Of a DNA stretch of 64,000 bases, positions 5,302 through 64,000 are shown piece by piece. Both the position numbers and the translations under genes were made by a program. The stretch is from Patescibacteria group bacterium. Its GTDB lineage: Bacteria > Patescibacteriota > UBA1384 > DATEAH01. The stretch covers positions 11,951 through 75,950 of the forward strand of contig DATEAH010000009.1 in assembly GCA_035288465.1 (NCBI GenBank), written 5' to 3'. The notes beneath the pieces were generated by a model. It was not told the DNA's origin and ran no database searches. It saw nothing but the letters and a program-made list of their open reading frames with translations. The stretch's first letter is position 1, and each line of letters opens with the position of its first letter.

Positions 5302-5304
5302 AAA

Positions 5305-10993: not shown

Positions 10994-11958
10994 CTACCCC
11001 TCGCGGAGGAAGCTGTTGCGGGTGCGGGTGGGTTTGTTCTGCCGAGCGGCACGGCGAATCTCCTTGCCGTTCTCGGCGTTGCGCTTGGCATCGCGGCGGG
11101 AAGTGGGGCGGGAAGTGGAGGCCGGTGCGGCCTGAGTAGTGGTCTGTTCCAGGTAGGGACCCACATCGCCGTACTCGCGGTGATCAGCCTTGGCGATGAT
11201 CAGCCGAAGACCAGTACCGTTCATGCGGTCCTGTACCGCGGCCACGAGACCCTCCCCGCGCTCACGCGAACGCAGGTACATACCGGCGTTCTTGAGCGCC
11301 GTTGCGACCTCGTTCCATGTCTCCTGCCATTGCGCGCCCTGAGCGAAATACGAGTGGGCACGTTCAAGCTCGACGGGGAAGCCGTCGGCTTCGGCCTTGG
11401 AGATGAACTTCTCGACGGACTGTCTGGCGGCAGTCTCGTTGCCCTGGAAGACCTCGCTGGCAACGCCGAGAAGTTCGGCGAGGCACGTCTCGAACTCGTC
11501 GTGGCTCATCGCAGCGACGGTCTGTCCCTCCCACGCATAGGAGGGTTCGAACTCGCGAGACGGCAGCTCAGCCTGTGTGGCCGATGCCGTCGCTGCGTCC
11601 GTGTCGGCGCAGACGTCGTCTGCGGTCTCGGTCTGTGTCTCGGCCGCGGGCTCTGCAGACTCAGCGACGGGTGTCGCTTCAGCCGCAGGCGCGGTTTCGG
11701 GGGTGGGGGCCATCTCGGCCTCGGACCCACCCTCGTCGCTCGGTGCCGGAGGGATCTCCTCCTCTACAGGAGCAGGAGGGATCACCTCTTCGGCGGCAAT
11801 GAGCTTCGTTTCGCGAAGATCGAACCACGAAGCCCAACCGTCGTTGGCGGCGCGGAGCTTGGCGACGCCGTCGGTGTTCTCATCGCAGACCTGACAGAAC
11901 TCCGTCAGAGTCTGTGCCCCCTGAAGGGCAGTCGAAAGATCAGCGAGAGTCAAAGACA
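10994..11958 (-). CDS. hypothetical acidic protein (Pro/Ala/Glu-rich central low-complexity region), high GC
   Basis: GGAGG RBS then ATG at 11958 (MSLTLADLS…); ~62% GC; no family recognised. Confidence 0.45.
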
Positions 11959-12365: not shown

Positions 12366-13028
12366 TTAGTCATCGGGTACGGGCGGAATCGGTTCAAGTG
12401 TTGGAGTTGACGGGGCTGGAGGTGCGGGGGTTGGTGGCGTTGGTGTAGTGTCGGCGGTGGGACCAACAGTCGCGCCAGCGGCGAACCGAGTCCGATTGGT
12501 GACCCGGGTGGTGTATCTGATGTACACAGAATTCCGGGCCGGGATCTCGGTGACCCCAAAGTCAGACAAGGAGGCATCCCCACCAAAGAGTCGAGCAAGT
12601 TGCTCGTCCGAAATGGGGATGTCTTCGCCGTCCCGGCCGATGTTAAGCAGACCGGAACCGGCCACCAAGGTCGCGTCACCATGTAGATTGTCGGTGCCGC
12701 GAACCTCATCCGCACGGGTCGGGGTATACCCGGAGTTCTGCCAATCGAGGCGCCACCGGAGATAGTCCCCGACACCGGACTCGACATTCTCCTGCCAGCC
12801 TGAGCCGGCGGGAGTCCGAGTCAAGTTCCGGACAAGCTTGAACGTCCGGAGCGGAGGCGGGAGGATCACCCTCGAAGCAGCTCGCGCTTCCCGAATGGGG
12901 ATTCCCAGGAACCAACCCCGCAAGATATTGGTAATCCTGCGACCGGACCAGAACAGAAGCCACAGGAGCCAGGCAACGACTCCTGCTGCGACGACGGACA
13001 ATACCGTTACGAGTGTGGTCATTACCAT
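12366..13028 (-). CDS. hypothetical N-terminally membrane-anchored protein with Pro/Thr-rich C-terminus, high GC
   Basis: [29 protein letters not shown] helix; start overlaps stop of upstream collagen-like gene (ATGGTAATGA). Confidence 0.45.
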
Positions 13029-13702
13029 AACCTCCTGAGGTATTCCCGGATGCCGATGTACGCGCAGCCCAAGATTACGAAAATCAGGGCTACGATGGCA
13101 ACGAGTAGCCAAGGGCTGTCTCCTTGCCCATCGGGTGCGGACGGACCAGTCATTGTCTTGGATGCGAGGACCTGACGGTCTCGTGCCTCGACAAACGACT
13201 TTGAGACGACGCCGGATTTGATAGCCCATTCCGCGATGGTCTCAATGACCACGTGGCGCGATAGGCCATCTTGTCCGGCTGGTCCGCGAGGTCCGCGCGA
13301 ACCGCGACGTCCCAGACCCGAAGGTCCAGGTACGCCATCTTTGCCAGCAGGACCAGGAGCACCGTTTTGGCCGTTTAGACCAGGCGCCCCGTCCTTAACG
13401 GCAGGCCCCGGGATTCCCTGCGGACCCGGAGGTCCGGCAAGTCCGCCAGTTGACACCACCACTGGGGGTGGTGTTGTGTCCGGTGAGACCGGAGGCGCTA
13501 GAGTTTCCGGAGTCGAATTGACCTCCGGTTGCTCCACTGGAATCTCCACTGGGATGGTCGGCTGGTTGGGCTGATCAGTGCGCCCAAGGACTTTTACGTC
13601 CCGGGCGTCACCTTCGGCCCTTGCAACTTGCAACGAGGCCACCGCTGCCAGGAGGCAAGCGGCGACCCAGAGAACGAACTTGTGACGGTTCATCGCCGTC
13701 AC
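13022..13702 (-). CDS. secreted collagen-like (Gly-X-Y) repeat protein with C-terminal TM anchor, high GC
   Basis: Signal peptide [29 protein letters not shown]; [11 protein letters not shown]…[25 protein letters not shown] triplets; C-terminal hydrophobic helix. Confidence 0.55.
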
Positions 13703-13865: not shown

Positions 13866-13905
13866 TCAAAAAAAGCTCCCTCTGTCAAGGGAATTAGCTT
13901 TATTT
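13866..13905 (-). terminator. intrinsic terminator of leuS (TCCCT-loop-AGGGA + GCTTTTTTT on minus strand)
   Basis: Hairpin followed by 7-T run directly 3' of the leuS stop. Confidence 0.6.
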
Positions 13906-35237: not shown

Positions 35238-36248
35238 ATGTTAGGTCGAAGAATTGGCATTGATTTAGGGACCACCAATACTTTAGTGTATTTGCCCAAA
35301 AAGGGGATTGTGAGTAATGAACCAACGGTGGTGGCATTATCGGTTGATGATAACCGTGTTTTAGCAATTGGCAAAGAAGCCAAAGAAATGATTGGACGCA
35401 CGCCTGAAAGTATTATTGCTTCGCATCCTTTGCGGGATGGTGTCATTGCCGATTATCGAATTTGCGAAGCGATGTTGAGATATTTTATTAATCGCGTTTC
35501 TGGCGGTTTAAGGTTATTTCGTCCGGAAGTGATGATTGCCGCCCCAGCTGGTATTACCTCCACTGAAAAAAGGGCGGTTATTGATGCGGCCTTGCAAGCT
35601 GGTGCCAAAGCAGCTTTTATCATCAAAGAGCCGGTTGCCGCCGCGCTTGGTGCGGAAGTGCCAATTTCTTCTCCGTCGGGGAATATGATTATTGATATTG
35701 GCGGTGGCACCTCTGAAGTAGCAGTAATTGCTTTGGGTGATATTGTCGCGGCCAGCTCAGTTCGTACCGGGGGCCGGAAAATGGATCAAGCTCTTGCCAA
35801 TTATATCCGTCGCAAACATAATCTAATTGTTGGCGAACAAACCGCCGAAAACATTAAAATTAAAATCGGTTCAGTTTTACCTTTGAAAAAAGAGTTAAAA
35901 ATGGAGATCTCTGGTTCTAATTCAATCTCTGGCTTGCCCGAAACAATTATCGTTACCAGCAATGATGTGGTAAAGTCACTTAAAAATGAGTTAAAAGATA
36001 TTATCAACACCGTCAAAAATGTTTTACAAAACACCCCCCCGGAATTAGCCGCAGATGTGATTGATAAAGGCATTATAATGTCTGGTGGCGGTTCAATGTT
36101 GCGAAATATTGATTCATTAATGACCAAGGTCACCGGCGTGCCGTGCCATGTTGCTGAAGAGCCTTTATTGGCGGTGGCAAAGGGAACAGGCATGGCGGTT
36201 GAAAATTTAGACGCCTACAAAAAATCAGTCTTATGGATAAAATCATAA
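35238..36248 (+). CDS. mreB: rod shape-determining protein MreB
   Basis: IGIDLGTTNTLVY phosphate-1 motif, IIDIGGGTSEVAV, actin-fold length. Confidence 0.9.
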   Translation: MLGRRIGIDLGTTNTLVYLPKKGIVSNEPTVVALSVDDNRVLAIGKEAKEMIGRTPESIIASHPLRDGVIADYRICEAMLRYFINRVSGGLRLFRPEVMIAAPAGITSTEKRAVIDAALQAGAKAAFIIKEPVAAALGAEVPISSPSGNMIIDIGGGTSEVAVIALGDIVAASSVRTGGRKMDQALANYIRRKHNLIVGEQTAENIKIKIGSVLPLKKELKMEISGSNSISGLPETIIVTSNDVVKSLKNELKDIINTVKNVLQNTPPELAADVIDKGIIMSGGGSMLRNIDSLMTKVTGVPCHVAEEPLLAVAKGTGMAVENLDAYKKSVLWIKS

Positions 36249-37186
36249 TCATGATTAATCCTAAAGTAGCCATTATTTTAGTTAATTATAATTCACAACA
36301 AGACACTCTCGAATGCTTAGAGAGTCTTTTTCGAATTAGCTATCCGAATTTTAAAGTGGTTTTAGTGGATAATAATTCCAAAGATGATTCAGCCAAAATA
36401 ATTCGACAAAGATTTGGTGCTAAAGTAAAAATCATTGAAAATTCTAAAAATTTAGGTTTTGCCGAAGGTAATAATGTTGGCGTTCGTTGGGCACTAAAAA
36501 ACAATGCCGACTATGTTATGCTCTTGAATAATGACACCATTGTTAATCCGAGTTTTTTGGATATTTTAATCAAAAATGTCCAAAATAAACCCCAATTCGA
36601 AGTTTTTTCCCCACAAATCCGCATGTATCCGGATAAAAACCGCTTATGGTATGCGGGGGGACGAATGATGCCGTTTCTCGGGTCTGTGCAAATGTTTAAT
36701 CGGGGTGCCAAAATTTCAAATGCGAAATTAAAAAAACCAAGCGAAATTACTTTTATCACTGGGGCGGCGATGCTAATCTCCGCTTTGTTATTTAAAAAAG
36801 TGGGTTTTTTGGATAAAAAATATTTTTTATACTGGGAAGAAACAGATTGGGAAGCTCGGGCTCTTCGTGCTGGGGTAAAATTTTTATATGTTCCAGATGC
36901 GGTGATTTGGCACAAGATTTCCCAAAGCACTGGTGGTGCCGCAAACCCCAAAATGCAATATTATTTCTATCGCAACAATTTATTATTTGCGAAAAAGAAT
37001 TTGGTATTTTATTGGTGGCCAACTTTTTTACTTTTTATATTTTTTAGAATTTTATTTTTTGAAATTGGTTTAGGGTTAATCCAATATTTGTTTGGAAAAC
37101 GAACTCGATTTTTAGGTTTAAAATATTTATGTAGGGGAATTTTAGATTTTTTTAGCGGCAAATTTGGTGCAACAAAATTGGAATAA
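36233..37186 (+). CDS. family 2 glycosyltransferase
   Basis: VAIILVNYNSQQDTLECLESL … VVLVDNNSKDDS … DxD-type GT-A signature; C-terminal TM. Confidence 0.8.
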   Translation: MDKIIIMINPKVAIILVNYNSQQDTLECLESLFRISYPNFKVVLVDNNSKDDSAKIIRQRFGAKVKIIENSKNLGFAEGNNVGVRWALKNNADYVMLLNNDTIVNPSFLDILIKNVQNKPQFEVFSPQIRMYPDKNRLWYAGGRMMPFLGSVQMFNRGAKISNAKLKKPSEITFITGAAMLISALLFKKVGFLDKKYFLYWEETDWEARALRAGVKFLYVPDAVIWHKISQSTGGAANPKMQYYFYRNNLLFAKKNLVFYWWPTFLLFIFFRILFFEIGLGLIQYLFGKRTRFLGLKYLCRGILDFFSGKFGATKLE

Positions 37187-37399
37187 TTTTTAAAATGTTT
37201 CGCTCGGCACTCTCCACAAAAAGACGCTCCGTCAATCAAATTTATTATCAAAATTACTCTCAAGCCGTCGCTTGACTCTTGTCTTGCCCCAATTGTTATA
37301 CTTTTTTAATGCCTTATCTTGGGCAAGTCTGCGAGACACTTTTTTTAGGAGGTGCCTTCGCTCTTTACCTGTAAATTTTATCTTTTTAAGGTAGAGATA

Positions 37400-37427
37400 T
37401 TGACAAATATTTTTGATATGGTATAAT
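37400..37427 (+). promoter_or_regulatory. near-consensus sigma70 promoter (TTGACA-16-TATAAT) driving the GC-rich noncoding unit
   Basis: Exact -35 and -10 hexamers in an AT-rich spacer just before GC content jumps. Confidence 0.6.
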
Positions 37428-37434
37428 AAGTAAA

Positions 37435-38564
37435 ATAAAGAAAAACAAAGATAAACCCAAAATAAACTAAAACGCAGGCAACACCCGCCAGGGTGCAGAC
37501 GGAGGTCGTCTGTCCCAACAGACCCATTCGTCGGGTCTGACTACATATGGCAGAAGGAGATGGTGTCAATGGTCGTACCAGGTCGCTCAGACAGACAGGG
37601 AACACACAGGGCCTGACGGCGGTTGACCCCAGCACCGGACCGGCGATGCGTCCCACAAGACGTAATCCATCATCAGAAAGGAGTATCAACTCCTTGAACC
37701 GGTTCTTCTCGAGCTTCCGAAAACGATAGTCCGACCCCACCCCCGGGAGCATGTTCAGTTCAGGTAGGATAGTCAGGATAGTCGGTTGGCAAGCCCGGCA
37801 ACCTCGAGGTGTTCTGCCAACGGGTTATACCGGTCGTCAGCTGATAAAAGCGCCGTCGCGTTTCCTGTCGTCCGGCATCGCTTCCGGCGTCGTAAAACTC
37901 GGCAGCTCCACCAGTCTTCGGCTAGATACCCAACTATCCTCGGAATCACACCCACAGGTTTCATGACTGGGGTTTGGTCCAGGACACGGCCCGTCAAGGC
38001 CACTAGGGTTTCGGCCACAAGGAAGACTGGGTTCGGTTCGTACCTTCACAACTAGTCGCAACTTCTTCTCGGCGCATAGTGCAGCTCTCGCGCTAAACTA
38101 CCAGAAGAACTGGTTCACCTTCGGGTGATAAGAAAACGGTTTCTGCACGAACCGGACCTAAGGTAAAGAAGAAACGCCAAACAGTTTCGCGTCGAGCAGG
38201 CATGGCCGTAGTGGTTACAAGAAAGTGTGGCCTGCCGCCGCGAAACTGCCGCTGGGCGACCAGATGTGGTTCCATCTTAGAGCTCCTAATCGGGCTCAAC
38301 AAACCCATCTGGTCTGACAGCACAACGTCCCACTGGGGGCGACCAAGCCGGGTAACGGGATTGGAGCGGATTCATCCGACTTACAACCCCTCACCAACCT
38401 GACTTCGGTCGCCCCTCCCTTTCCACCCTTCCTCCGCAATCCTCGTCTCTTTCGTCCTATTCGGGGCGGCAGCCGGTCCACAACGGGACCCTTCTGGGTC
38501 ACGAAACCCCCACTGGCTTGCCGCCCCGATATCTAAAAATTATTAGACCTTTTGGTCTTTTTTT
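37435..38564 (+). ncRNA. candidate large structured noncoding RNA (~1.1 kb, ~57% GC, ORF-free) of unknown class
   Basis: Bounded by promoter and intrinsic terminator; only short overlapping Arg/Pro/Ser-rich ORFs on both strands, none with RBS; UUCG tetraloop hairpins (CACC-TTCG-GGTG, GAC-TTCG-GTC); ~13-bp closing helix GGGGCGGCAGCC/GGCTTGCCGCCCC. Confidence 0.55.
38545..38564 (+). terminator. intrinsic terminator AGACC-TTTT-GGTCT + TTTTTT
   Basis: Perfect 5-bp stem, UUUU loop, 6-T run at 3' edge of the GC-rich unit. Confidence 0.7.
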
Positions 38565-38648
38565 GTTTCCAGCTTTATTTTTGGCTTAAAAAATGATAGA
38601 ATAGCATCAAGTAAAATCAGTAAACAATAAACAAATAATATCCGCCAG

Positions 38649-40028
38649 TTGGCGGAAGCAATCATCATGATAATTTTAGTAATTTTCGCCTTAGCCTTAA
38701 TTATTTTTTCATTTCTAAAACCCAAATGGGCGTTTTATTTGTTATTAGCTTTAATTCCCTTCCATGCTTTTTTATTCACCACTTTCAATGAATTATTAAA
38801 TTTAACTGGCCGCAGTTCGCAAATTCTGGCTTCTTGGAAAGAAATTATTATGTTCGGTTTGATTTTGCGCATTTTATGGCAAATTGTTAAGACTCGAAAA
38901 CCACCCTTTAAAATTTTATTTGTCGACAAAATTATTGCTTTATTGTTTTTACTCGGCATTTCCACCATGATCTTTTTCTTGATTCCGCTCAAATCTGCTT
39001 TTTGGGGATTTCGATTTGATTTTGAGATGTTTTTAATTTATTTCCTAGCTCGCTCCTATGTTTGGAAAAAACCTGAAATTCAAAAATCAGTCCTAATAAT
39101 TTTATCATCAGCCATGATTGTGGCTCTTTTTGCATTGTTGCAAGCCTGGTTTCTGCCGGCCGATTTTCTGACTCATTTCGGTTATTCATCAGGAGTAAAT
39201 TGGCAACAAGCGATCGCTTTGCCGGCTTATCAAACCATTGGCGCCTCAAATGTGGTGCGCATGCAATCATTTTTAGCTGGTCCAAATCAATTAGGCTCGT
39301 ATTTATTAATCCCAATTTTTATCAGCCTGGTGTATTTAATTTCTGCAAAAAGTAACAAATTAAAATTACTGTTAACTGTTTACTGTTTACTGTTAATTTT
39401 TTCTTTATTTTACACCTATTCCCGTTCCGCATGGTTGGCATTTGCCGCAGGTTTGGTGGTTTTAATTTTAATAAAAATCAAACAGCGTTACCCACTCAAA
39501 ACATTTTTAATCACCATGTCTGCAATTTTTGTAGTTTTAATAGGATTGTTGATTTTTATCCAATATCAACCCTTTGGTATTAAATTTGCCGATGTATATA
39601 TTAATCATCAAGGCTCAAATTTGGAAAGATTTAGCCGGCTTCAAGCCTCTTTTGAAACTATTATTAAAACACCGTGGGGTTTGGGAATCGGACAAGCTGG
39701 GCAAGCTCAACTTCATTCCATGAGTGCTACGGCTTTAATTTCAGAAAATTGGTATTTGCAAATTGGCGTTGAATTGGGAATTTTGGGTTTGATAATTTAT
39801 TTGCTCGTTATCTACCACTTTCTTAAAAATTTATGGCAAACCTTAAAATTTTTAACTGGAAAATTTGGCCACGATCTTAGTCTGGCGGTATTTTCAGGAT
39901 TTATCGTTCTTTCTTTGCACGCGATGTTTTTACACACTTGGTCTGATATTTCCACCGCTTTAACCTTTTGGTTTTTGGTCGGCTTGATTTTGACACAGAC
40001 ATCTACAAAATTACAAAAAAGTACATAA
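38649..40028 (+). CDS. O-antigen ligase/polymerase-like polytopic membrane protein
   Basis: ~10-12 TM helices with a large periplasmic loop; context with GT2 and TagA genes. Confidence 0.55.
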   Translation: MAEAIIMIILVIFALALIIFSFLKPKWAFYLLLALIPFHAFLFTTFNELLNLTGRSSQILASWKEIIMFGLILRILWQIVKTRKPPFKILFVDKIIALLFLLGISTMIFFLIPLKSAFWGFRFDFEMFLIYFLARSYVWKKPEIQKSVLIILSSAMIVALFALLQAWFLPADFLTHFGYSSGVNWQQAIALPAYQTIGASNVVRMQSFLAGPNQLGSYLLIPIFISLVYLISAKSNKLKLLLTVYCLLLIFSLFYTYSRSAWLAFAAGLVVLILIKIKQRYPLKTFLITMSAIFVVLIGLLIFIQYQPFGIKFADVYINHQGSNLERFSRLQASFETIIKTPWGLGIGQAGQAQLHSMSATALISENWYLQIGVELGILGLIIYLLVIYHFLKNLWQTLKFLTGKFGHDLSLAVFSGFIVLSLHAMFLHTWSDISTALTFWFLVGLILTQTSTKLQKST

Positions 40029-46530: not shown

Positions 46531-47306
46531 ATAAAATCGTATATCTAAAAAAAATCCCTCTAAGGATGATGGTTATGAAAAGTTGGCCCTAAAGGGAAAA
46601 GTAAAAAAATAATAGATTAATGTCGTCTCGTCTGCAAACGCGATGGGGGTCGGCGACAGCAATCAGGTTTTGTGGGATGATGTTTTAAATGACCATTTCG
46701 GCCGTTATTTTTGGTTGATTTCGGTTGGGTGGGTTCTAAAGGCTGCATTTGCCACTTATTACATGCAAGCGAATCGGGTCGGAAGGATCGCTTACGAAAT
46801 GAACAAGACAATTCATCTGTATCAATCGCCATTTGATCTGTGGATTCGCCAGTCCAGACTGATTGAAATTGAATTTGGTGGTGGGCATGAGTGCAGAAAC
46901 CGCACCGTTTCACCCGATCCCGATGTAGCTGTCTGTTGTCTGACGCCTCCGACGAAGTGGTGCTTGGAACGACTGGCTTTTTCGGCAAGAGCTGTCACCT
47001 CTTCTGGAGTTCGCACGGATGTTCTTATTATACCAATTTCCAAATTTTTGTCAATGTCGAAAAAATGGCCGAGGGTTCCAAGATGAACATTTATTTGAAT
47101 CTCTGACCCGTATCTGTTGACGCCAGCAATAATGCATACGCTGGTTAAAAGACGTGCAATTTGCACAAAGCTTTGTGCGGTGACGCTTAGCCTTAATCCG
47201 GTGAACTTTTTTTCTTCTCTTTGAGTTTGGGATTAGATCCACCTCCACAAGAATATCAGAATGTTAATAATATACCCATTTTTTGTTTATTTGTCAAATT
47301 GAAATC

Positions 47307-47335
47307 TTGCCAAATAATTTAAAACGTGAGATAAT
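47307..47335 (+). promoter_or_regulatory. sigma70-like promoter (TTGCCA-17-GATAAT) placing the TSS at/near the rel ATG (leaderless)
   Basis: Hexamers with 17-nt spacer; ATG at 47343 has no upstream SD. Confidence 0.45.
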
Positions 47336-54251: not shown

Positions 54252-54328
54252 AGGCTGAGTTTATAATGTAGAATTTATCTGCTGAATTCCAATTATTTCA
54301 TGAATTAAAAAGAGAGGGAGGGGTTATA

Positions 54329-57300
54329 ATGCCCTTTGAGATTCAACCAAGTTTTATCTTGATAATTTTGGCATTTTTAGGTATTTTTGTTTTTTGGTAT
54401 CCAAAAACAAGAGTTCTAATTATAAAATATTCTAAATTATTTTGGAAAATTATCTTAATTTGTCTAAATAATCTTTCAAAATTGTATAAAATAATAAGTA
54501 TTTATTGGGAAAAATACATTTTTGTCTATTTCCGAACACGAGAAAAAGAGCAAATCCGTGGACTGACAAAAATTGCAATTATTCTCATTATTTTTTCCTT
54601 TATTCTCAATTCATTTGGCCTTGAACCCGACAGTCCCCAAAAAGCAGTCGCCGGCTATCAATGGACGCCTTCGGGGGGAAGTGTTATTACCGGGAGTGAA
54701 TATAATACCCAAGATGCAATTGCCAACACGCCTTCATATCGGGCATTAATGTCTAGCGATGATGTCCGCTGGCTGACAAAATATGATCCTGCCGCAGGTT
54801 TAGATAAACGGACCTATATTGATGGGGTTCAGCTTCAGGGCGCTAACAAAATGTTTATCACTTATGAAGGTTACGCCAGTGATGCCGCCGGAAATTATAC
54901 GGTTGAGATTTATGATAACACTGATTTTGTTTGGCGGACTTTAAATTGGCGCGGCACTGCTTTTACTAATACCAGTGACTCAACTTATACTTTTGAAATC
55001 TATAATGGTTTTTGGCAATCAGGCGGAAATCCGGTTAATACGCCCTTGTCTCGTTTTGTGACCGGAGATGCCAATAAGAGAGTCTCTATTCGAGTTTATT
55101 CGGCCGTAACTGGCGGCAGAATTCATTATTGGGACCGGCTGCAAGTTGAAGTTGGCATTGATCCGGTTTATTACACAAACTCTTTAACTAAATTAAATGG
55201 CTGGACAGGGGCAATTACCAATGATTATACCTGGACTAATTATGCCGATGACCAAAGAATGGTTGCCGCAAATCAAGCCGGAACGCCTTTGGATTTTTAT
55301 CTTTCATACACCGGAATCCAAACATACCCTAGCGCTAATACTATCTTTGTTGATTTTCAAGGCTCAGTTTCAAACGCGGCCCTAACTTATCAGCTTCAAA
55401 TTTATAATTTTACCGGTTTAAGCTGGGAAAATTTAAACACCACCCTGCTTGCCAATACTACTGAAACAAGTTATTATTTTGCTAAAAATAATGTCACACT
55501 TGCAGATTATATTTCTGCTAATGAAGCCAGAATTAGGATTTATACCGCTACTGGCAATACCTACACCTTAAGCGCAGACCGGGTTTATATCACTGTCGGC
55601 TCAACTAATACTGACCAAGGTTTGTGTCAGGTTTCTTTTGGCACAGAAGCTGGCGGGACAAATTGTTCAAATACTCGAACGATTGATACTTCAAGCGCCG
55701 AGAGTACTTGGCAGCAGACCACAGCGACTACCGCCGCCGCTGGTTATTACCCGGGAGATTACGCTGGAACCTGGGGAACTAATTATTCGGCGTCTGCTAA
55801 TCTTTCGGTGCCAATTACCATTCCAGACAGTACCGCGGTGACTGGGATTAAATACACGGCTAGATTTCGTTCAAATGTGACCACCAACACGATGATGCCA
55901 AGCCTAAAAGATATGTCTGGGATTAATACCTCTGTGGTCGGGACAGGCTATGCCGCACCCGGGGGTTGGGTTGATGTTTCAGCTTCAAATGCATTAACGA
56001 CTTATTCCACTTTAGAACCAGCCGCTTATACTCTTTCAACTTCATCAGAAGATTTTATTAATACTGAAAGCGATCTTGCGAATATACGCATGCGAACCTC
56101 AGCCAGCACTGCTACCGGAAGCGTAACGAGGGACTGGGATTTTGCTTTAATTGCGATTCGATGGCTTGCTGATGACACTGTCGCGGCCGATAATCCCCAA
56201 TATGTAGCCACATCTGGGTCTCTCCAAACCGGGACAGCGGTTGCAGTTGGCGCGACAAATACCGCATCATATTCCGGCACATTAAATTCTGAAAATTATT
56301 ACTGGCAAAACCAAAATTCAGCTTCTGGTTTGGATGTTCGGGTCAACATCGATGGTGTTAAACTCAACAATGCCAACAAAATGATTATTACTTATGAAGG
56401 CATGGTTTCAAACGCGGCTTTAGTATATTATGTGCAAATCTATGATAATACCAACTCTTTATGGCGAACCTTAAATGACCGAGGAGCAGCCCTCACCAGT
56501 ATTACGGAATCAAGCTATTATTTCTCGATCTTTAATGGTTTCTGGGGAGCAGACACTCCCTTATCAAACTTTATCACCAGTGATGCCAACAAACGGGTTC
56601 AACTAAGAATCTATTCTGAATATAAGGGTACTGCCTATACTCAATCTATAGACCGACTTCAACTTGAAGTAGCCACTGACCCAATTTACTGGGCTAAAGA
56701 CCAGACAGTTTTAGCGGGTGGAGATGGGGCAGTGACTAGTACCGGAACTAATGCCAGAGCCTTTGATATTACTAAAGATTCCTCTTATACGTATGCAGTA
56801 GGATATTGCGGAAATGATTGGTGCATAGAAAAAAGAAGAATTTCTGACGGAAGTTTAGTCAATGATTTTGGCAATAATGGTTTGGTTATTGGTACAATAT
56901 CGAGCAATAATGCGACTGCGCTTGCGATTGACGCAACTTATATGTATATTGTCGGGAATACTGGTGGATTTCCAAGTAATTTTTATTACGAAAAAAGAAA
57001 CCTTATTGATGGTAATCTAGATTTAGGTTTTGGGACTAACGGTGTTATTACCGGTGATCCCGATAGTAATATGGCTACAAGTATTGTCATTGATAATAGT
57101 AATATGTATGTGATTGGATACGACGATTCAAATAATTTACGCATTGAAAAAAGATCATTAACTAATGGCACATTAGATGCAGGTTTTGGTACCAATGGTG
57201 TGATCACTGGCGATCCATCAAGCAATATCGCTGAAGATATAGCCATAGATAATGAGTTTATGTATGTGGTAGGAGCTGATGACACTCCGGACTGGCGAAT

Positions 57301-60300
57301 CGAGAAACGTTATTTATCTGACGGCGACCCGGATGTAACTTTTGGCATTAATGGGGTGAAAACTAGTGACGCCGCCAGTAAATATGCTTTTGCAATTGCG
57401 ATTGACGCGACTCAAATGTATGTGGTGGGTCAAGATGAAACGCCGGATATTCGTATTGAAAATAGATTGCTTTCTGATGGCAGTTTGGATTTGACTTTTG
57501 GTTTAAATGGGGTGAAAACTAGCGACGCCGCAAGTGTTGTCGCCCAAGATATTGCCATTGACGACCAATATATGTATTTGACAGGGTCCAACACTACCCC
57601 GGACTGGCGAACTGAAAAACGCCTCTTATCTGATGGCAGTTATGATTTAGGTTTTGGTACTAACGGTGTTGCGACTAGTGCCTCAGCGAGTGACTACGCT
57701 TTTGGTATCGTGATTGATGCAAATGATATGTACATCGCCGGTAGTGAATACGCAGCCGATTGGCAGTGGCGGGTTGAAAAAAGAAGTTTATCTGACAGCT
57801 CTTTAAATACAATTTATGGAAGTCTTAATAATAATTACAAATTTACTCATCCGGCGGCTGGCAGCGCCATCTCTACTGGCGGTTCAGATGACCAAAGGAT
57901 GACTTTTGCCAATCCTTCAGGTGCCTCTTTTGATTATTATCTCACCTTTGGCAATGTGACTAAATACACTGGTGCGAATGCGATTCTGGTCTATTATGAA
58001 GGCAACACCTCTACTGCCAGTTTAACCTATAAAATTAAAATCTATAATTTTACCACTCCAGGCTGGGAAGATTTATCTAGCACTGTTTTTGCTAATACTT
58101 CAGATACTGCATATCAATTTGCCAAAGCTCCCATTGCCAATCTTGATGATTACATCTCTGATGGCAATATCAGGATTGGTTTTTACACCAATACCACTCA
58201 AGCTGGTACTTTTTCTGTTGATTACGTTTATGCCACCCTGGGTAGCGTGATTTCCGATGCTGGCAATTCTGAATTAACTTTTGGCGCCACCAATGGCGGC
58301 TCTTCATCATTAAATAGCCAATCCATAGATACAAGTTCAACCTCGCCTTCTACCTGGCAGATAAATACTTCAAATACCGGTGCAAATCCTTATGCTTCAG
58401 ATTGGGCAGGACAATATAGTGTCAATCAGCAAGCCACCGCTTTAATTGATTTTTCAACTACTTTAGGGAATAATACCCCCACCACTGGTATCAGATATGC
58501 TTTTCGGATGTTAACTGCTTCCACCAGTTTGACTTGGCAAGGGTATCAACAAGATTATTCGGGATTAATCGGCACTGTTGGCGGTTGGTTAGCAGCTGGT
58601 ACAACCAATAGTTCCGATTCAACATATACATATACCGAAGGCTGGAATGGCACCACTTTTAGAAATAATGAAAATTATCTCAATACTTTCGAAAATACCT
58701 TGAATTTAAAATTAAAACCGACTGCCAGTACCCGAGGTACCCAGTTAACCACCAATTGGGATTTTGCTTTTGCCTCTTTGCGTTGGTATGAAAATTCAGC
58801 CAACGCCCATTATAATTTTCAACTCACCCCAACCAATAGCAGTATTACTTTAGGTTCAGATATCGATCCTCAAGATGCGGTGCAAAATGTTGGTTCTTGG
58901 CGGGCCGCCTTAGCTTCAGATGATAATAGATGGGTAATTAAAAATGACCCTACCGCCGGACTTGATGCTAGAATCAGCCTTGATAATATTGACTTAAACT
59001 CCGGCAACAAAATGATGATTACTTATGAAGGCTCAGTCTCATATGCCTCAGCTTATTATTTTGTCCAAATTTATGACAATGTAAGTTCGGTTTGGCGAAC
59101 TTTAAATGACCGAGAAGTAGCTTTAAATAATACCACCGAAACTAGTCCATATTATTTTTCAATTTTCAACGGTTACTGGAATGATGGCGGGGGTTCTGTT
59201 AACGCGCCTTTGAGTAATTTTATCACCAACGATGCCAATAAACGGGTTCAGATTAGATTTTATTCGACGACGAACATTGTTGGATTTACCTTAGCAATAG
59301 ACCGTGTGCAGGCCGAAGTCGCGACTGATCCGGTTTATTGGCCAAGTAATTTTAATTTATCAAGCGGCAGTGATGGGATTATGGATGGCGTTGTCGCTAG
59401 TGATAGCATTCGCGCTATGGCGAAGGATACCAGCTATATGTATGTGGTAGGTAATGATAGCACTCCTGACTGGCGAGTTGAAAAAAGAAGTTTAATAAGC
59501 GGCAGTTTGGATACTGGTTTTGGCACCAATGGCGTAGCCACCGGCGCTTCGGCAAGCAACTGGGCTTATGCCATTGCTATTGATGCTAACTTTATGTACG
59601 TTGCAGGGGGTGATAGTACTCCTGATTTGCGCATTGAAAAACGCAGATTGTCTGATGGCAGTTTAGATGTAGGTTTTGGCACCAATGGCGTGGTTACTGG
59701 AGCATCGTCTAGTAATGGAATTTCGACCATTGCCATTGATTCTACCTATATGTATGTGGCTGGGTGGGATAGCACTCCTAATTGGCGCATTGAAAAACGC
59801 AGCTTGTCTAATGGCAGTTTAGATTTAGGTTTTGGCAATAATGGCGTCATTACCAGCGATTCGGATGGCGATTATGCTCAAGCTATTGCCATTGACACTA
59901 ATTTTATGTATGTGGCGGGAATAACCGGCGCTCCTAATTGGCGCATTGAAAAACGCAGCTTATCCGACGGCAGTTTAGATTTAGGTTTTGGCACCAATGG
60001 CGTAATCGCTTGCGACCCAGCAAGCAATGATCTGGGGGGGATTGCTGTAGCTGCCGGTTTTATGTATATAGCAGGTTTTGATGACACTTTTAATTGGCGC
60101 ATTGAAAAACGCAACTTATCCGACGGTACTCCGGATAATGGTTTTGGCACCAACGGTGTCGTCACCGGCGACCCGGCGAGCAACAGGGCTTATGCCATTG
60201 CCATTGATGCTACCTATATGTATGTAGCGGGACGCGATGAAAATACTAAATGGCGCATTGAAAAACGCAACTTATCCGACGGTACTCCGGATAATGTTTT

Positions 60301-63300
60301 TGGCACCAACGGTGTCGTCACCGGCGATGTAACCAGTTTTGTTGCTTTTGCCATTACTATTGATGCCAGCAAAATATATACGGCAGGTTCTGATTGGGTG
60401 GGTAACTGGCACATTGACAAAAGAGCTCTTTCTGACGGTGCCTTAGATACATCTTCTGGCTCAGGTTTTGGCAATGTTGATTATAATACTTACAAAGCCA
60501 CTCATCCAATTGCCACGACAGCAATTTCTTCGGGCGGTTCGGATGATCAATACCTAGCTGTTCAGAATATCTCTGGTCAATCGTTTGACTTTTATCTGAC
60601 TTTCGGCAATGTTGCCACCTATACCGGTGCTAATGCCCTTTTTGTTTATTATGAAGGTAAAACCTCAGCGGCAGGTTTAACCTACAAAATTAAAATCTAT
60701 AATTTTACTACCCCCGGCTGGGAGGATTTATCAGCCACGGTTTTTGCTAACACCACTGATACAGCCTACCAGTTTGCCAAGGCTCCGATTGCAAATCTCG
60801 ATGACTACATTTCGGGCGGGAATATTCGGATTGGTTTTTACACACCTTCCACCACAGCTGGGAGCTTTAGTATTGATTATCTTTATCTGATGCCGGGTTC
60901 AGTGATTGACAATGCCGCTAATTCGGAAATATCTTTTGGCACAGAAGCGGGCGGTACCGCCGCCACCGGGACGCAAAGCTTGGATACAAGCTTAGGAGCA
61001 GGCGCCGAAAATTATTGGGGAGTCACCACCGCGACAACTGCCACTAATCCTTATTTTGGCGACTGGTCAGGAACCTACAGCACAAATGATAACGGCGCCG
61101 CTAATATCTCCTTTCCGGTGACAATGCCCGCCAACGCTAAAGTGACTAACACCAGGTCTGTGGCAAGGTATTTGTCTAATTCAGCCGCAAACACGATTGA
61201 ATACGCTTTTAAAGATTATGGCGGAGCTTTGGGAACAACCGGCGGTTGGGTTGATCCGGGCGCTGTCAGCAATAACTCTTCCACTTATTCTATAAATTAC
61301 TATCGGCAAACCACAAATCCCGAAGATTTTATCAATACCTCAACTAACAAAATGAACATGAAAATCAGAACCACCGCCAGCACTGATGCTAATTTGGTCA
61401 CTTACCGCTGGGATTTTGCTTTCGTCACTTTTGCTTGGACAACCGAAGAAGATCACCCTTCGGGTTCTCATCAATTCACCGGTACAGGCGGTTCTTTAGA
61501 AGTTGGGATAGGCATGGCGTTGTCATCAACTAATTATGGCAGCTGGCGCGGGACTTTAGCGTCTGATAATGGTTACTGGCAAAACCAAAATTCAGCTTCG
61601 GGTTTAGATGTGCGAGTCAGCATCGATGGTGTTAAACTCAACAATGCCAACAAAATGATTATCACTTATGAGGGCATGGTTTCCAACGCGGCCTTAACTT
61701 ATTATGTCCAAATATATGATAATACCGCTGGTTTCTGGCGGACCCTAAATGATCGAGGCGCCCTATTAACCAGCACCACCGAATCAACTTATTATTTCTC
61801 CATCTTCGACGGTTTTTGGGGTTCAAGTACTCCCTTATCAAACTTTATCACCAGTGATGCCAACAAACGAGTTCAATTAAGAATCTATTCCGAATATACT
61901 GGCACGGCCTACACCCAATCTGTTGACCGATTCCAACTTGAGGTTGCCACGGATCCTGTTTATTGGGCTAAAGACCAGACAGTCTTGGCGGGTGGAGATG
62001 GGGTAATTACTAGTGCTGCTGATGGCTATGAAGCCACTGATGTTGCCAAAGATGATACCTATATGTATGTGTTTGGAAACAATGAATCTTTTGATTGGCG
62101 GGTTGAAAAAAGAAAGTTATCCGATGGCACCCTAGATGTTGGTTTTGGTAATAATGGTGTTGTTTCAAGCCCGGGAGCAAGTAATTATGCTGAAGCCATT
62201 ACTATTGACTCGACTTATATGTATATCGTAGGTAGTAATTGGACAACTGAGGACAAAATACGAGTTGAAAAACGTCGTTTGTCTGATGGTAGCTTAGATA
62301 TGAGCTTCGGCACAAATGGTGTAATTTTAGGTGATTCAAGTAGTTCTTATGCTTACGCCATTGATGTTGACTCAACTTATATGTACATAGTTGGAACTGA
62401 TGACACTCCTGACTGGCGAATTGAGAAACGTTATTTATCTGATGGCAGCTTAGATTTAAGTTTTGGGAATAATGGTATTATCACTTGCGATCCTTTAAGT
62501 TATGCAGCATTAGCAATTATTATTGATAATAATTTTATGTATATTACCGGGAGAGATGAAACGGCAGATTGGCGCATTGAAAAAAGGGCTCTTTCAAATG
62601 GTGATTTAGATTTAGGTTTTGGCGATCAAGGTGTAATCACCGGTGACCCGGCAGGTTTCGCGGCTAATAATCTTGCCATTAATGACACGTATATGTATGT
62701 CGTTGGAAATATCCCAACCCCTGATTGGCGCATTGAAAAAAGAGCTTTACTTGATGGTAGTTTGGACTTAAGTTTTGGCAATAATGGTGTTATTTCAGGT
62801 GATCCATCCAGTAATACTCCATATGATATTACTATTGATTCAAATTATATGTATGTTACCGGAGATCAATGGGCGGCTGGATATGACTGGCGAATTGAAA
62901 AACGAGCCCTCTCAGACGGTGCTCCAGATTTAGGTTTTGGCACCAACGGGGTGATCACCGGTGATGTAGCCACATATCGGTCTTATGGCATTGTTAAAGA
63001 CTCAAATGATATGTATGTGGTTGGGGGTGACGGTTCTGATTGGCGAATTGAAAAACGAGCCCTCTCAAATGGTGCCCTAAATACTATCTTTGGCAGTCTT
63101 AATAATAATTACAAATTTACCCACCCGGCGGCTGGCAGCGCTATTTCCACTGGCGGTTCAGATGATCAGAAGTTGGCTTATGTCAATCCTTCAGGTGCCT
63201 CTTTTGATTATTATTTAACTTTTGGCAATGTCGCTACTTATACTGGCGCAAATGCAATTTTGGTCTATTACGAGGGTATGACTTCCACCGCTAGCCTTAC

Positions 63301-64000
63301 CTACAAACTTAAGATATATAATTTTACTAATTTGAACTGGGAAGATTTATCCTCAACTGCTCTTGTCAATACGGCAGATACTGCCTATCAGTTTGCCAAA
63401 GCGCCCATTGCAAACCTCGATGATTATATCCAAGGCGGCAATATCCGGATTGGTTTTTATACCTCTACCACCCAAGCCGGCACTTTTTCTGTCGATTATA
63501 TTTATGCCACCCTGGGCAGTGTGATTTCTGATGCGGGGAATGCCCAAATCTCTTTTGGCTCAACTGACGGTTCAAGCGCTTTAAACACCCAAAACCTCGA
63601 TGCTTCTTTAGCCAGTCCTGCTGTTTATGGCGTAAATACTGCCACCACTGCCGCCAGTTTTTACGCGAATGATTATGCACCAGGTCTATATAATGTTGCT
63701 CAAAATGGGGCCGCGAATATCAATTTTAACATCACACCCACTAATAATACTTTTGTGACCGGTATTCGATATGCGGCGCGTTATCGTTCTAATTCAACTT
63801 TACTGACAGTCCAGCCTAATGTTTTTGATTACAGCGGTTTACTTGGGGTATCAGGCGGCTGGTTAGCGGTCGGCACCACCAATGCCCTTACTACCTATAC
63901 TTATTCTGAAGGTTTTCATAATGCCACGAATAATAACGCTTGGGGTTTTAATAACGATCTTTCTAATATGCGTTTGAGAACTACCGCCAGTACTTTAGGC
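54329..64000 (+). CDS. giant N-terminally membrane-anchored surface repeat protein (>3,224 aa, 3' end beyond window)
   Basis: GGGAGGGG RBS then ATG 54329; hand translation stop-free to window end (9,672 nt = 3,224 codons); two N-terminal hydrophobic helices then repeated A/B/C modules and delta-60-like ~45-aa repeats. Confidence 0.75.
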   Translation, partial: MPFEIQPSFILIILAFLGIFVFWYPKTRVLIIKYSKLFWKIILICLNNLSKLYKIISIYWEKYIFVYFRTREKEQIRGLTKIAIILIIFSFILNSFGLEPDSPQKAVAGYQWTPSGGSVITGSEYNTQDAIANTPSYRALMSSDDVRWLTKYDPAAGLDKRTYIDGVQLQGANKMFITYEGYASDAAGNYTVEIYDNTDFVWRTLNWRGTAFTNTSDSTYTFEIYNGFWQSGGNPVNTPLSRFVTGDANKRVSIRVYSAVTGGRIHYWDRLQVEVGIDPVYYTNSLTKLNGWTGAITNDYTWTNYADDQRMVAANQAGTPLDFYLSYTGIQTYPSANTIFVDFQGSVSNAALTYQLQIYNFTGLSWENLNTTLLANTTETSYYFAKNNVTLADYISANEARIRIYTATGNTYTLSADRVYITVGSTNTDQGLCQVSFGTEAGGTNCSNTRTIDTSSAESTWQQTTATTAAAGYYPGDYAGTWGTNYSASANLSVPITIPDSTAVTGIKYTARFRSNVTTNTMMPSLKDMSGINTSVVGTGYAAPGGWVDVSASNALTTYSTLEPAAYTLSTSSEDFINTESDLANIRMRTSASTATGSVTRDWDFALIAIRWLADDTVAADNPQYVATSGSLQTGTAVAVGATNTASYSGTLNSENYYWQNQNSASGLDVRVNIDGVKLNNANKMIITYEGMVSNAALVYYVQIYDNTNSLWRTLNDRGAALTSITESSYYFSIFNGFWGADTPLSNFITSDANKRVQLRIYSEYKGTAYTQSIDRLQLEVATDPIYWAKDQTVLAGGDGAVTSTGTNARAFDITKDSSYTYAVGYCGNDWCIEKRRISDGSLVNDFGNNGLVIGTISSNNATALAIDATYMYIVGNTGGFPSNFYYEKRNLIDGNLDLGFGTNGVITGDPDSNMATSIVIDNSNMYVIGYDDSNNLRIEKRSLTNGTLDAGFGTNGVITGDPSSNIAEDIAIDNEFMYVVGADDTPDWRIEKRYLSDGDPDVTFGINGVKTSDAASKYAFAIAIDATQMYVVGQDETPDIRIENRLLSDGSLDLTFGLNGVKTSDAASVVAQDIAIDDQYMYLTGSNTTPDWRTEKRLLSDGSYDLGFGTNGVATSASASDYAFGIVIDANDMYIAGSEYAADWQWRVEKRSLSDSSLNTIYGSLNNNYKFTHPAAGSAISTGGSDDQRMTFANPSGASFDYYLTFGNVTKYTGANAILVYYEGNTSTASLTYKIKIYNFTTPGWEDLSSTVFANTSDTAYQFAKAPIANLDDYISDGNIRIGFYTNTTQAGTFSVDYVYATLGSVISDAGNSELTFGATNGGSSSLNSQSIDTSSTSPSTWQINTSNTGANPYASDWAGQYSVNQQATALIDFSTTLGNNTPTTGIRYAFRMLTASTSLTWQGYQQDYSGLIGTVGGWLAAGTTNSSDSTYTYTEGWNGTTFRNNENYLNTFENTLNLKLKPTASTRGTQLTTNWDFAFASLRWYENSANAHYNFQLTPTNSSITLGSDIDPQDAVQNVGSWRAALASDDNRWVIKNDPTAGLDARISLDNIDLNSGNKMMITYEGSVSYASAYYFVQIYDNVSSVWRTLNDREVALNNTTETSPYYFSIFNGYWNDGGGSVNAPLSNFITNDANKRVQIRFYSTTNIVGFTLAIDRVQAEVATDPVYWPSNFNLSSGSDGIMDGVVASDSIRAMAKDTSYMYVVGNDSTPDWRVEKRSLISGSLDTGFGTNGVATGASASNWAYAIAIDANFMYVAGGDSTPDLRIEKRRLSDGSLDVGFGTNGVVTGASSSNGISTIAIDSTYMYVAGWDSTPNWRIEKRSLSNGSLDLGFGNNGVITSDSDGDYAQAIAIDTNFMYVAGITGAPNWRIEKRSLSDGSLDLGFGTNGVIACDPASNDLGGIAVAAGFMYIAGFDDTFNWRIEKRNLSDGTPDNGFGTNGVVTGDPASNRAYAIAIDATYMYVAGRDENTKWRIEKRNLSDGTPDNVFGTNGVVTGDVTSFVAFAITIDASKIYTAGSDWVGNWHIDKRALSDGALDTSSGSGFGNVDYNTYKATHPIATTAISSGGSDDQYLAVQNISGQSFDFYLTFGNVATYTGANALFVYYEGKTSAAGLTYKIKIYNFTTPGWEDLSATVFANTTDTAYQFAKAPIANLDDYISGGNIRIGFYTPSTTAGSFSIDYLYLMPGSVIDNAANSEISFGTEAGGTAATGTQSLDTSLGAGAENYWGVTTATTATNPYFGDWSGTYSTNDNGAANISFPVTMPANAKVTNTRSVARYLSNSAANTIEYAFKDYGGALGTTGGWVDPGAVSNNSSTYSINYYRQTTNPEDFINTSTNKMNMKIRTTASTDANLVTYRWDFAFVTFAWTTEEDHPSGSHQFTGTGGSLEVGIGMALSSTNYGSWRGTLASDNGYWQNQNSASGLDVRVSIDGVKLNNANKMIITYEGMVSNAALTYYVQIYDNTAGFWRTLNDRGALLTSTTESTYYFSIFDGFWGSSTPLSNFITSDANKRVQLRIYSEYTGTAYTQSVDRFQLEVATDPVYWAKDQTVLAGGDGVITSAADGYEATDVAKDDTYMYVFGNNESFDWRVEKRKLSDGTLDVGFGNNGVVSSPGASNYAEAITIDSTYMYIVGSNWTTEDKIRVEKRRLSDGSLDMSFGTNGVILGDSSSSYAYAIDVDSTYMYIVGTDDTPDWRIEKRYLSDGSLDLSFGNNGIITCDPLSYAALAIIIDNNFMYITGRDETADWRIEKRALSNGDLDLGFGDQGVITGDPAGFAANNLAINDTYMYVVGNIPTPDWRIEKRALLDGSLDLSFGNNGVISGDPSSNTPYDITIDSNYMYVTGDQWAAGYDWRIEKRALSDGAPDLGFGTNGVITGDVATYRSYGIVKDSNDMYVVGGDGSDWRIEKRALSNGALNTIFGSLNNNYKFTHPAAGSAISTGGSDDQKLAYVNPSGASFDYYLTFGNVATYTGANAILVYYEGMTSTASLTYKLKIYNFTNLNWEDLSSTALVNTADTAYQFAKAPIANLDDYIQGGNIRIGFYTSTTQAGTFSVDYIYATLGSVISDAGNAQISFGSTDGSSALNTQNLDASLASPAVYGVNTATTAASFYANDYAPGLYNVAQNGAANINFNITPTNNTFVTGIRYAARYRSNSTLLTVQPNVFDYSGLLGVSGGWLAVGTTNALTTYTYSEGFHNATNNNAWGFNNDLSNMRLRTTASTLG
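56300..64000 (+). repeat. tandem ~2.64-kb intragenic supermodules (x3+ within the giant gene), ~88-90% DNA identity between copies
   Basis: e.g. ACTGGCAAAACCAAAATTCAGCTTC…GATGGTGTTAAACTCAACAATGCCAACAAAATGATTAT at 56.30k and 61.57k; CTTAATAATAATTACAAATTTAC…GGCGGTTCAGATGA at 57.82k and 63.10k. Confidence 0.7.

Follow-up and report, generated by a model that had tools for sequence, protein, structure and literature searches.

The 64,000-nucleotide stretch of DNA analysed here (the window hereafter; positions 11,951 to 75,950 of the forward strand of contig DATEAH010000009.1, assembly GCA_035288465.1) is part of the metagenome-assembled genome of an uncultured Patescibacteria group bacterium and contains a GC-rich island between the genes for a family-2 glycosyltransferase (GT2) and a Wzy_C/O-antigen-ligase-like membrane protein. 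Our favoured reading is that positions 37434-38564 of the + strand may represent an independently transcribed, non-coding, highly structured RNA gene of ~1.13 kb, specific to a small clade of Patescibacteria; we judge the case for and against it to be about evenly balanced. The unit matches no known RNA family, and the conservation of its structure is unproven. Its narrow distribution (about five genomes) and the lack of covariation support for the window sequence limit our confidence.

An earlier note, prepared from the sequence of this region, had described a jump in GC content, an exact consensus promoter and an intrinsic terminator, and all three were confirmed. In 200-nt windows the GC content rises from 0.24-0.40 upstream of position 37400 to 0.52-0.61 over 37500-38500 and then drops to ~0.30. 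The body of the island (37470-38530) is 57.4% GC, compared with 37-39% for the 64-kb window, and falls in the range of the three tRNAs encoded in the window (56-65%). The signals that delimit the unit are the following:

37400-37427, + strand: sigma-70 promoter TTGACA-16-TATAAT with a TG extended -10, a 12/12 match to the consensus
38545-38564, + strand: intrinsic terminator AGACC-UUUU-GGUCU followed by U7, with a short stem of 5 bp

With a promoter upstream and a terminator downstream on the same strand, the island is predicted to be an independent sigma-70 unit, whose transcription would start at ~37434. No antisense promoter of the unit was found. The 1201-nt stretch that holds the island is 100% identical in at least nine contigs from independent ENA, JGI and Logan assemblies; the island is therefore not an assembly artefact or a chimera, and the chimeric insert that the earlier note had named as a way to refute its proposal is ruled out. 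Strain variants of the island were not found in the databases (90% clusters searched), and two further contigs, L169 and L170, are identical across it. The strain derives from groundwater (JGI samples 3300025289, 3300025313, 3300025319, 3300025325 and 3300025327; ENA ERZ27254873). An AT-rich 15-nt inverted repeat (37452-37466 / 38574-38588, 13/15 complementary) flanks the GC-rich body and the terminator and could be either a chance occurrence in AT-rich sequence or an insertion relic.

The body of the island does not code for protein. There is no long open reading frame (ORF) in it under translation table 11 or with any stop codon reassigned, six-frame translations gave no credible Pfam match, and in each of the 300-nt windows across the island the signal-to-noise ratio of the Fourier period-3 component stays at noise level (0.3-1.4), compared with 1.4-10.4 in the GC-rich coding cassettes of the same genome (described below). 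The earlier statement that all ORFs are shorter than 90 aa holds insofar as no credible coding ORF is present, but it misses one ORF of 124 aa on the - strand (37378-37752), which extends into the AT-rich promoter, has no Pfam match and among 5.8 billion proteins matches only itself.

The predicted fold of the transcript is rich in helices. The minimum free energy (MFE) of the 1061-nt body is -426 kcal/mol, compared with -371 +/- 7.9 for 40 dinucleotide shuffles (z -7.0, + strand), so the comparison with shuffles proposed in the earlier note revealed an excess of predicted structure. The reverse complement of the body reaches z -2.8, an asymmetry in keeping with transcription of an RNA from the promoter strand. 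In 500-nt windows the z-score changes from -0.9 (37470-37969) to -3.9 (37750-38249) and to -8.1 in the 3' third. According to the partition function, 238 of the 339 MFE pairs have a probability (P) of at least 0.8. Additionally, the CUUCGG motif occurs three times on the + strand and not at all on the - strand, with a chance expectation of ~0.3 by rough estimate. From 5' to 3', the predicted elements, including a Shine-Dalgarno (SD)-like box and a possible mini-ORF, are:

37432-37473, + strand: A-rich 5' leader without predicted structure (unpaired in both the MFE and the centroid fold), containing three 15-nt repeats (AAAAYAAAGAWAAAC)
37491-37539, + strand: two 5' hairpins (37491-37516 and 37519-37539), pair probabilities 0.95-0.99
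37553-37562, + strand: SD-like purine box GAAGGAGAUG, which pairs with 38444-38453 (P 0.94-1.0) in a helix that spans ~900 nt and closes the RNA
37569-37616, + strand: possible mini-ORF MVVPGRSDRQGTHRA, ending in a stop codon and starting 9 nt past the SD-like box; translation putative
37594-37869, + strand: Domain 1, closed by GACAGGGAAC/GUUUCCUGUC, with the AGGAGU-AUCA-ACUCCU hairpin at 37679-37694 (P 0.84-0.98)
37912-38029, + strand: Domain 2, closed by CAGUCUUC/GAAGACUG (P 0.89-0.99)
38031-38157, + strand: Domain 3, closed by GUUCGGUUCGU/ACGAACCGGAC, with a cUUCGg hairpin at 38116-38127 (P 0.93-1.0; inverted repeat I8)
38182-38314, + strand: two long hairpins, 38182-38248 (18 bp) and 38258-38314 (13 bp) (P 0.97-0.98; inverted repeats I2 and I6)
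38318-38417, + strand: 3' module, predicted G-rich/C-rich outer helix 38336-38353/38397-38415 around a hairpin ending in CUUACAACCC
38418-38462, + strand: pyrimidine tract of 45 nt (38/45 C or U) with CCUCC/CUUCC anti-SD-like motifs, of which 38444-38453 pairs with the SD-like box
38461-38529, + strand: 16-bp hairpin GGGGCGGC-GCCGGU...ACUGGC-GCCGCCCC with no U-tract after it (P 0.98-0.99; inverted repeat I9)

The local helices singled out in the earlier note fared unequally in the ensemble. The AGGAGU-AUCA-ACUCCU hairpin (37679-37694) and the CACC-UUCG-GGUG hairpin (38116-38127) are both predicted with P of at least 0.9. The second UUCG sequence (38401-38410) is not a tetraloop, as it is placed in the 3' strand of a longer predicted helix, and the GGGGCGGC/GCCGCCCC helix (38461-38529) is present but forms a local 68-nt hairpin and not a long-range closing helix. 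The hairpin at 38258-38314 includes CAAACCCAUC, a 10-mer also found in L094 and L096, two of the six loci of related genomes compared with the island.

The six loci are designated L091, L092, L094, L095, L096 and L097; five of them (L091, L092, L094, L096 and L097) were included together with the island in the tests against known RNA families. Rfam 15 at gathering score returned three tRNAs in the 64-kb window and nothing else; permissive filters (E <= 10) over 37300-38700 gave only implausible microRNA and sRNA matches of 12-20 bits, and ARAGORN detected no tRNA or tmRNA in 37200-38800. In the Rfam scan that the earlier note had proposed, naming GOLLD, ROOL, OLE, RNase P, tmRNA and group I/II introns, the island matches no family. 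The covariance models of OLE, GOLLD, ROOL and HEARO remained unmatched at gathering score in the 64 kb and at E <= 10 in 37300-38700, and those of RNase P RNA, tmRNA, SRP RNA and 6S RNA had no match in the window or the island. There was no Rfam match to a group I/II intron core, and the island lies between two intact genes behind its own promoter, with neither flanking exons nor an intron-encoded protein. Neither the island nor the counterpart loci matched a riboswitch or leader family: L091, L092 and L094 gave no Rfam hit at E <= 1, and the only two matches in L096 and L097, to sRNAs, are weak and lie outside the units. Lineages of the Candidate Phyla Radiation (CPR) are known for divergent RNAs, and the size and GC content of the island would fit a divergent RNase P RNA, tmRNA, group I/II intron, OLE, GOLLD, ROOL or HEARO RNA that the covariance models missed; such an origin is nevertheless largely refuted by these results and scarcely credible.

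The gene order around the island is kept in the six relatives, MurA-MreB-GT2-[slot]-Wzy_C-MBL-(AP endonuclease)-WecG-NusA-ClpB, and the nearest Wzy_C orthologs outside the strain are only 45-51% identical. In the window, the slot occupied by the island is bordered by:

36233-37186, + strand: GT2, 317 aa, an ORF with Pfam Glycos_transf_2 found on the identical called gene
38594-38602, + strand: extended -10 promoter of Wzy_C itself, TGATAGAAT, read from the sequence
38667-40028, + strand: Wzy_C/O-antigen-ligase-like membrane protein, 453 aa (PF04932)

Four of the six relatives carry in this slot a same-strand unit with a GC-enriched, ORF-free body and a hairpin/U-run terminator, and the slot is ORF-free in five of the seven genomes when the window is included. 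The almost identical promoter TTGACAAAnnnTTTnnnTATGnTATAAT precedes the slot units of these four genomes:

L091: ORF-free slot unit of ~1.0 kb
L094: ORF-free slot unit of ~430 nt
L096: ORF-free slot unit of ~420 nt
L097: ORF-free slot unit of ~560 nt

The slot is a hotspot of cargo turnover. The terminator in the slot of L092 is homologous to the terminator located upstream of the RNA in L091 (4750-4810), and L091 has a further ORF-free unit after ClpB (12900-13347) with the SD-like box AGAGGUGAU. More distant relatives (MreB <= 70% identity) lack a slot of the GT2/Wzy_C type.

The two most similar counterparts permitted an analysis of selection. The bodies of L094 and L096 are 84-90% identical, compared with 46-72% at the four-fold degenerate sites of the flanking genes; their indels measure 4, 4, 6, 1, 1, 1 and 3 nt, and the substitutions show no codon phase bias. 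Among 98 consensus predicted pairs, five are changed on both sides, 11 on one side in a G-U compatible manner, and none is broken. Slid controls gave 0-1 double changes, and 21 of 500 shuffles reached the observed five, in a comparison of two sequences only. It is reasonable to read these sequences as a unit under purifying selection without a coding pattern and with compensatory changes. The folding z-scores of the counterparts are -5.5 for L094 and -4.4 for L097. A 60-nt A-rich stretch with the tandem 12-nt repeat AAGUCAAAGCGA x2 is 100% conserved between L094 (4020-4070) and L096 (3600-3650); being predicted largely unpaired, it is a candidate protein-binding site. The A-rich elements differ between the units, the window RNA having the three 15-nt repeats of its 5' leader in place of this stretch.

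The relationship of the window RNA to these units is distant. L091 has exact 17- and 16-mers in common with L094 and L096 as well as the terminal hairpin, and in global alignment it reaches z ~3 against block shuffles; the motifs AAGAAAGGATGATGCGC and GCGCTTTCTGGCTCTT...AGTCARAGCG common to these three are absent from the window RNA. A metagenome scan with a 22-base two-part motif of the L091 and L094 RNAs returned those strains again and one further contig, L166, which was judged a chance match: it is unrelated, and at 5349-5562 it repeats an 11-nt unit (GGAGTCACAGC / GGAGCCACAGC) more than 15 times in tandem, with the array running off the contig end. The ~100-nt 3' module is ~60% identical between the window and L091, with the conserved motifs ACAGNACAAC and CUUACAACCC; in its outer helix, by reading of the alignment, one pair changes from A-U to G-C and one is mismatched. 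The window module appears homologous to the terminator module of L091 and resembles those of L097 and of a coding cassette (cassette A, below). Its U-tract has degenerated to CCCUUUCC in the window, which explains the 150-nt 3' extension made up of the pyrimidine tract, the extra hairpin and the new short terminator. The window RNA is a positional, and probably very diverged, relative of the slot RNAs, and its membership in one family with them is unproven. The earlier proposal of a large, novel structured non-coding RNA (ncRNA) therefore stands with respect to the missing ORF, the absent coding signal, the excess of + strand structure, the tRNA-like GC content and the counterparts in the slot, and is not supported with respect to a conserved ornate architecture in the style of OLE, GOLLD and ROOL, as the counterparts range from 420 to 1000 nt and their bodies match the window RNA no better than shuffles do, with the exception of the ~100-nt module of L091.

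A more far-reaching reading would make the slot a conserved expression platform that maintains, in at least five genomes, fast-evolving, self-closing, ORF-free RNAs of 0.4-1.1 kb under selection. On such a platform the strongest promoter of the organism would be combined with a composite terminator, the window RNA would be the largest member of an undescribed clade-specific class of ncRNAs, and the SD-like box and anti-SD-like tract would mimic or titrate translation-initiation signals or an RNA-binding protein in hosts that may have very few conventional regulators. We regard this extension as doubtful.

An SD-like box followed by a mini-ORF of 7-27 codons lies near the 5' end of every ORF-free unit. 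The RNA might hence be an mRNA or a dual-function RNA, giving a 15-17-residue peptide from the AUG at 37569, with a structured remainder that gates the SD through the helix of 900-nt span as in fold-back-inhibited small-ORF mRNAs. The good SD and its 9-nt spacing to the AUG are compatible with this idea, and sequestration of the box by a long-range helix is predicted in the window RNA, L094 and L096, though not clearly in L091 and L097. The mini-ORFs of the relatives are comparable (11-27 codons), and CR-x-RST(I/L) recurs in the peptides of three of them (L091, L094 and L096), where Arg, Cys and Ser codons differ synonymously. However, the peptides of the window and L097 are unrelated to these, the nucleotide conservation between L091 and L094 runs past the L094 stop, across an 8-nt indel and into another frame, and a 4-nt indel between L094 and L096 falls within the putative ORF. 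Since the conservation ignores frame and stop codon, peptide coding is not the conserved feature, and a conserved micro-peptide as the main function was rejected. The peptides, of 7-27 aa, are neither hydrophobic nor toxin-like (that of the window is basic), and more than 95% of the transcript would stay untranslated. Altogether, a peptide-encoding role is improbable.

In all genomes the unit shares its strand with Wzy_C and lies only ~100 nt before it, and it could also be read as an exceptionally long cis-acting leader, or an attenuator, of the Wzy_C-MBL-AP endonuclease-WecG operon. Regulated read-through of the weak 5-bp terminator would then place the envelope-glycan genes under the strong promoter. 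The short final stem would suit this role, as would the U-tract lost from the ancestral terminator module in the window, which implies that read-through already occurred once, and the spacer between terminator and Wzy_C, identical in 56 of 58 nt between L094 and L096. Against it, a TGnTAAAAT-type extended -10 lies between the terminator and the start codon of Wzy_C in all seven genomes, including L092 and L095, which have no RNA in the slot; Wzy_C keeps its own promoter with or without the RNA, so the RNA unit is not the Wzy_C promoter region, and in the window the downstream gene is independent of it. In L094, L096 and L097 a strong stem and a U7 run form the terminator, the searches gave no match to riboswitch or leader families, and 420-1130 nt far exceeds known leaders, which makes a leader decidedly improbable. 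Upstream of the Wzy_C start in the window, a perfect 6-bp hairpin (TCCGCCAGTTGGCGGA, 38641-38656) covers the presumed ribosome-binding region, 11 nt before the ATG.

The island is not the only segment of deviant GC content in the window. Three tandem coding cassettes adjoin LeuRS in this 37% GC genome:

9481-13888, - strand: three tandem GC-rich (47-69%) coding cassettes with TTGACA-17-TATAAT promoters at 13888, 12213 and 10773
13693-13025, - strand: cassette A, collagen-like membrane protein
13022-12369, - strand: cassette A, 218-aa partner ORF
12330-12255, - strand: composite terminator of cassette A, GGGUGGGUAGAA...AGCUAUCAACCC...UUCUGCCCACCC and a U-run, with an outer G-rich/C-rich helix and an inner hairpin ending in CAACCC
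11959-10997, - strand: cassette B, 321-aa acidic ORFan
within the tandem, - strand: cassette C, DHH-like protein

The 218-aa partner has 23 homologs in 1.8 billion representatives and is fused to collagen repeats in P0144. A further perfect consensus promoter in the window precedes NusA. The island is one of several autonomous promoter-cargo-terminator units of deviant GC content, and the only one of them without an ORF; the likeness of the cassette A terminator to the 3' module of the island suggests that coding and non-coding units share terminator modules. The 11-mer GACUUCGGUCG found near the cassette A terminator recurs in the island. An apparent link of cassette B to a phage (P0129/L171) was set aside: L171 1-1120 (JGI 3300025289) fuses 189 nt of a podophage major-capsid gene in frame with a 931-nt segment of 100% identity to cassette B (window 10937-11867), the capsid part being 65% GC, Ralstonia-phage-like and 73-84% identical in amino acids to IMG/VR phages. 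As the junction is a shared 21-nt sequence (GTCGCCAAGCTCCGCGCCGCC, VAKLRAA), the contig is most likely an assembly chimera and was not used as evidence. Elsewhere in the window, 46617-47310 (- strand) holds, after ClpB, a pair of small basic ORFs rich in Cys and His, of which the second (123 aa, TTG start) lies behind a perfect consensus promoter at 47054; this segment looks non-coding at first sight because of overlapping ORFs on both strands. On the + strand from ~54270 to 64000, one open frame exceeding 3,243 codons, which probably encodes a giant surface protein, runs off the window end and accounts for the seeming absence of ORFs from the final 10 kb.

These cassettes bring up the rival account that deserves most attention, namely that the island is a functionless transcribed insert, a foreign or decayed GC-rich segment that has lost, or never had, coding capacity and is carried as cargo by the platform, with the SD-like box and mini-ORF as the stump of a former translation start. 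Several observations weigh against a structured RNA gene and have to be considered together with those in favour of such an insert. The 64 kb contain six perfect consensus promoters, three of which head the GC-rich protein-coding cassettes and are of the same type as that of the island, and the cassette A terminator resembles the island 3' module and the RNA terminators of L091 and L097. The earlier argument that a host-type promoter and terminator speak against a GC-rich insert was correct as to the presence of the signals but is weakened, as coding GC-rich inserts carry the same ones. In L168, from the same genome as L091, the promoter and the first 25 transcribed bases of the L091 slot RNA head a 282-aa ORFan (443-1550), which is located upstream of MurA and ends in CAGCUGCCCCUAUUUUUUUU. 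The cargo of the slot varies in length and sequence among the relatives, with small protein genes instead of RNA in L092 (ORFans of 113 and 159 aa, 4300-5620) and L095 (an ORFan of 85 aa, 1-680), and every ORF-free unit retains a good SD and a start codon followed by just 7-27 codons.

The folding evidence is open to similar criticism. Excess structure is missing from the 5' third of the island (z -0.9), the whole L091 RNA reaches a z-score of only -1.0, and parts of the GC-rich coding cassettes attain -5 to -8, at least partly because their Gly/Pro-rich repeats are self-complementary, while other coding windows range from +0.5 to -3.7. With controls reaching similar values, the z-score of the island is supportive but not decisive, and it was downgraded from stand-alone proof. 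Global alignment of the window body to the counterparts is at shuffle level (z 2.1 for L091, -0.3 for L094, 0.2 for L096 and 1.4 for L097), and a k-mer search over five independent ORF-free units found little shared beyond the U-run and the SD-like box AGAAAGGA, the sole body motif common to most of them. The island has neither strain variation nor a close relative (the nearest Wzy_C is 51% identical), and with no alignable variants or close homologs none of the helices of the window RNA has covariation support. None of the collections searched contained a homolog of the body. The 'distant' blastn search detected no similar DNA in phage and plasmid collections, the 5.8 billion proteins gave none for the 124-aa ORF, exact 24-26-mers of the island and of cassette B were absent from IMG/VR, and the MreB-anchored loci of 80 GTDB species (best 70% identity) contained no homolog, GC island or such slot. 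The promoter pattern had 67 matches in IMG/VR, none with the RNA, and is thus a generic strong promoter.

On the other side, the 300-nt windows show no residual period-3, although frameshifts would merely shift its phase, and no protein remnant is recognizable; tblastn of all sister-cassette proteins against the five ORF-free RNAs, as a test for decayed cargo, gave no match. A segment of 57% GC would need upkeep in a 37% GC genome, its promoter and terminator are intact, and the ORF-free state recurs in five of seven genomes at the slot. The folding excess, the cUUCGg motifs and their strand specificity, as well as the purifying selection with compensatory changes suggested for the L094/L096 counterpart, also speak against an insert without function. 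We consider such an insert unlikely, yet far from negligible, and retain the structured RNA gene as the favoured reading.

If the island is such a gene, its RNA would accumulate as a stable and abundant molecule and would act in trans. The likeliest mode of action would be sequestration or base-pairing through the exposed A-rich leader and the pyrimidine-rich (anti-SD-like) or SD-like elements, by which the RNA could bind up a protein or stretches of purine-rich RNA, for example SD regions. The role of a template or a cis-acting leader is less likely. For bacteria with minimal genomes, keeping a non-coding gene of 1.1 kb under a perfect promoter carries a cost, and there should be some reason for it. 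Large structured ncRNAs are seldom found in bacteria, and the discovery of each class (OLE, GOLLD, ROOL) opened new biology; to our knowledge none has been described from the CPR, and text searches of the literature for large ncRNAs in CPR bacteria returned nothing relevant. A functional RNA would provide a first handle on RNA-based regulation or scaffolding in uncultured episymbionts and would mark a variable, strongly expressed locus within the envelope-glycan cluster. Should the island be only transcribed junk, it would show, together with the sister cassettes, that segments of deviant GC content are kept as autonomous promoter-terminator units.

The window RNA resembles OLE, GOLLD and ROOL in several respects. 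It is on the scale of several hundred to ~1000 nt, ORF-free and GC-enriched in an AT-rich genome, it was noticed as a long GC-rich intergenic region, it has no assigned function and is predicted to contain many helices, and it forms an independent unit that, judged from its signals, is probably highly expressed. Those classes have widely conserved covarying cores, whereas the window RNA has about five barely alignable positional counterparts. They also have signature contexts, oapA/B for OLE, a phage or tRNA neighbourhood for GOLLD and ROOL, and IscB for HEARO, in contrast to the GT2, Wzy_C, MBL-fold protein, MreB and MurA that surround the window RNA.

Parallels in the proposed mode of action are offered by the Staphylococcus RNAIII and by RNAs of the RsaE and RoxS type, whose C-rich motifs pair with SD regions and of which RNAIII has a dual function. 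Like them, the window RNA would be transcribed as a unit of its own between a strong promoter and a terminator and has a CCUCC/CUUCC tract complementary to SD sequences, and like RNAIII it has a possible small ORF; unlike them, it is 2-10 times longer and non-homologous, and in the predicted fold its tract is partly occupied by its own SD-like box. Type I toxin and fold-back-inhibited small-ORF mRNAs have a small hydrophobic ORF, an SD sequestered by 5'-3' pairing and an antisense partner; for the window RNA, SD sequestration is predicted, the mini-ORF is basic and not conserved, and no antisense promoter was found. The leader and antitermination RNAs of polysaccharide operons, such as EAR and JUMPstart/ops, are comparable in setting, as the window RNA lies in an envelope-glycan cluster, immediately before Wzy_C and in the same orientation; it differs from them in having no Rfam match, a 10-fold greater length and its own terminator, and Wzy_C has its own promoter.

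In its layout, the island is also comparable to phage morons, which are autonomous promoter-gene-terminator inserts with a GC content deviating from their surroundings (PMC3594210). The island likewise has its own promoter and terminator and a deviant GC content, lies between unrelated genes, and is present, absent or different in relatives, while the sister cassettes fit the same layout with protein cargo. Unlike morons, it is located among housekeeping genes (MurA, MreB, NusA, ClpB) with no prophage, its cargo is non-coding, and its promoter is the consensus of the organism itself, which also serves NusA.

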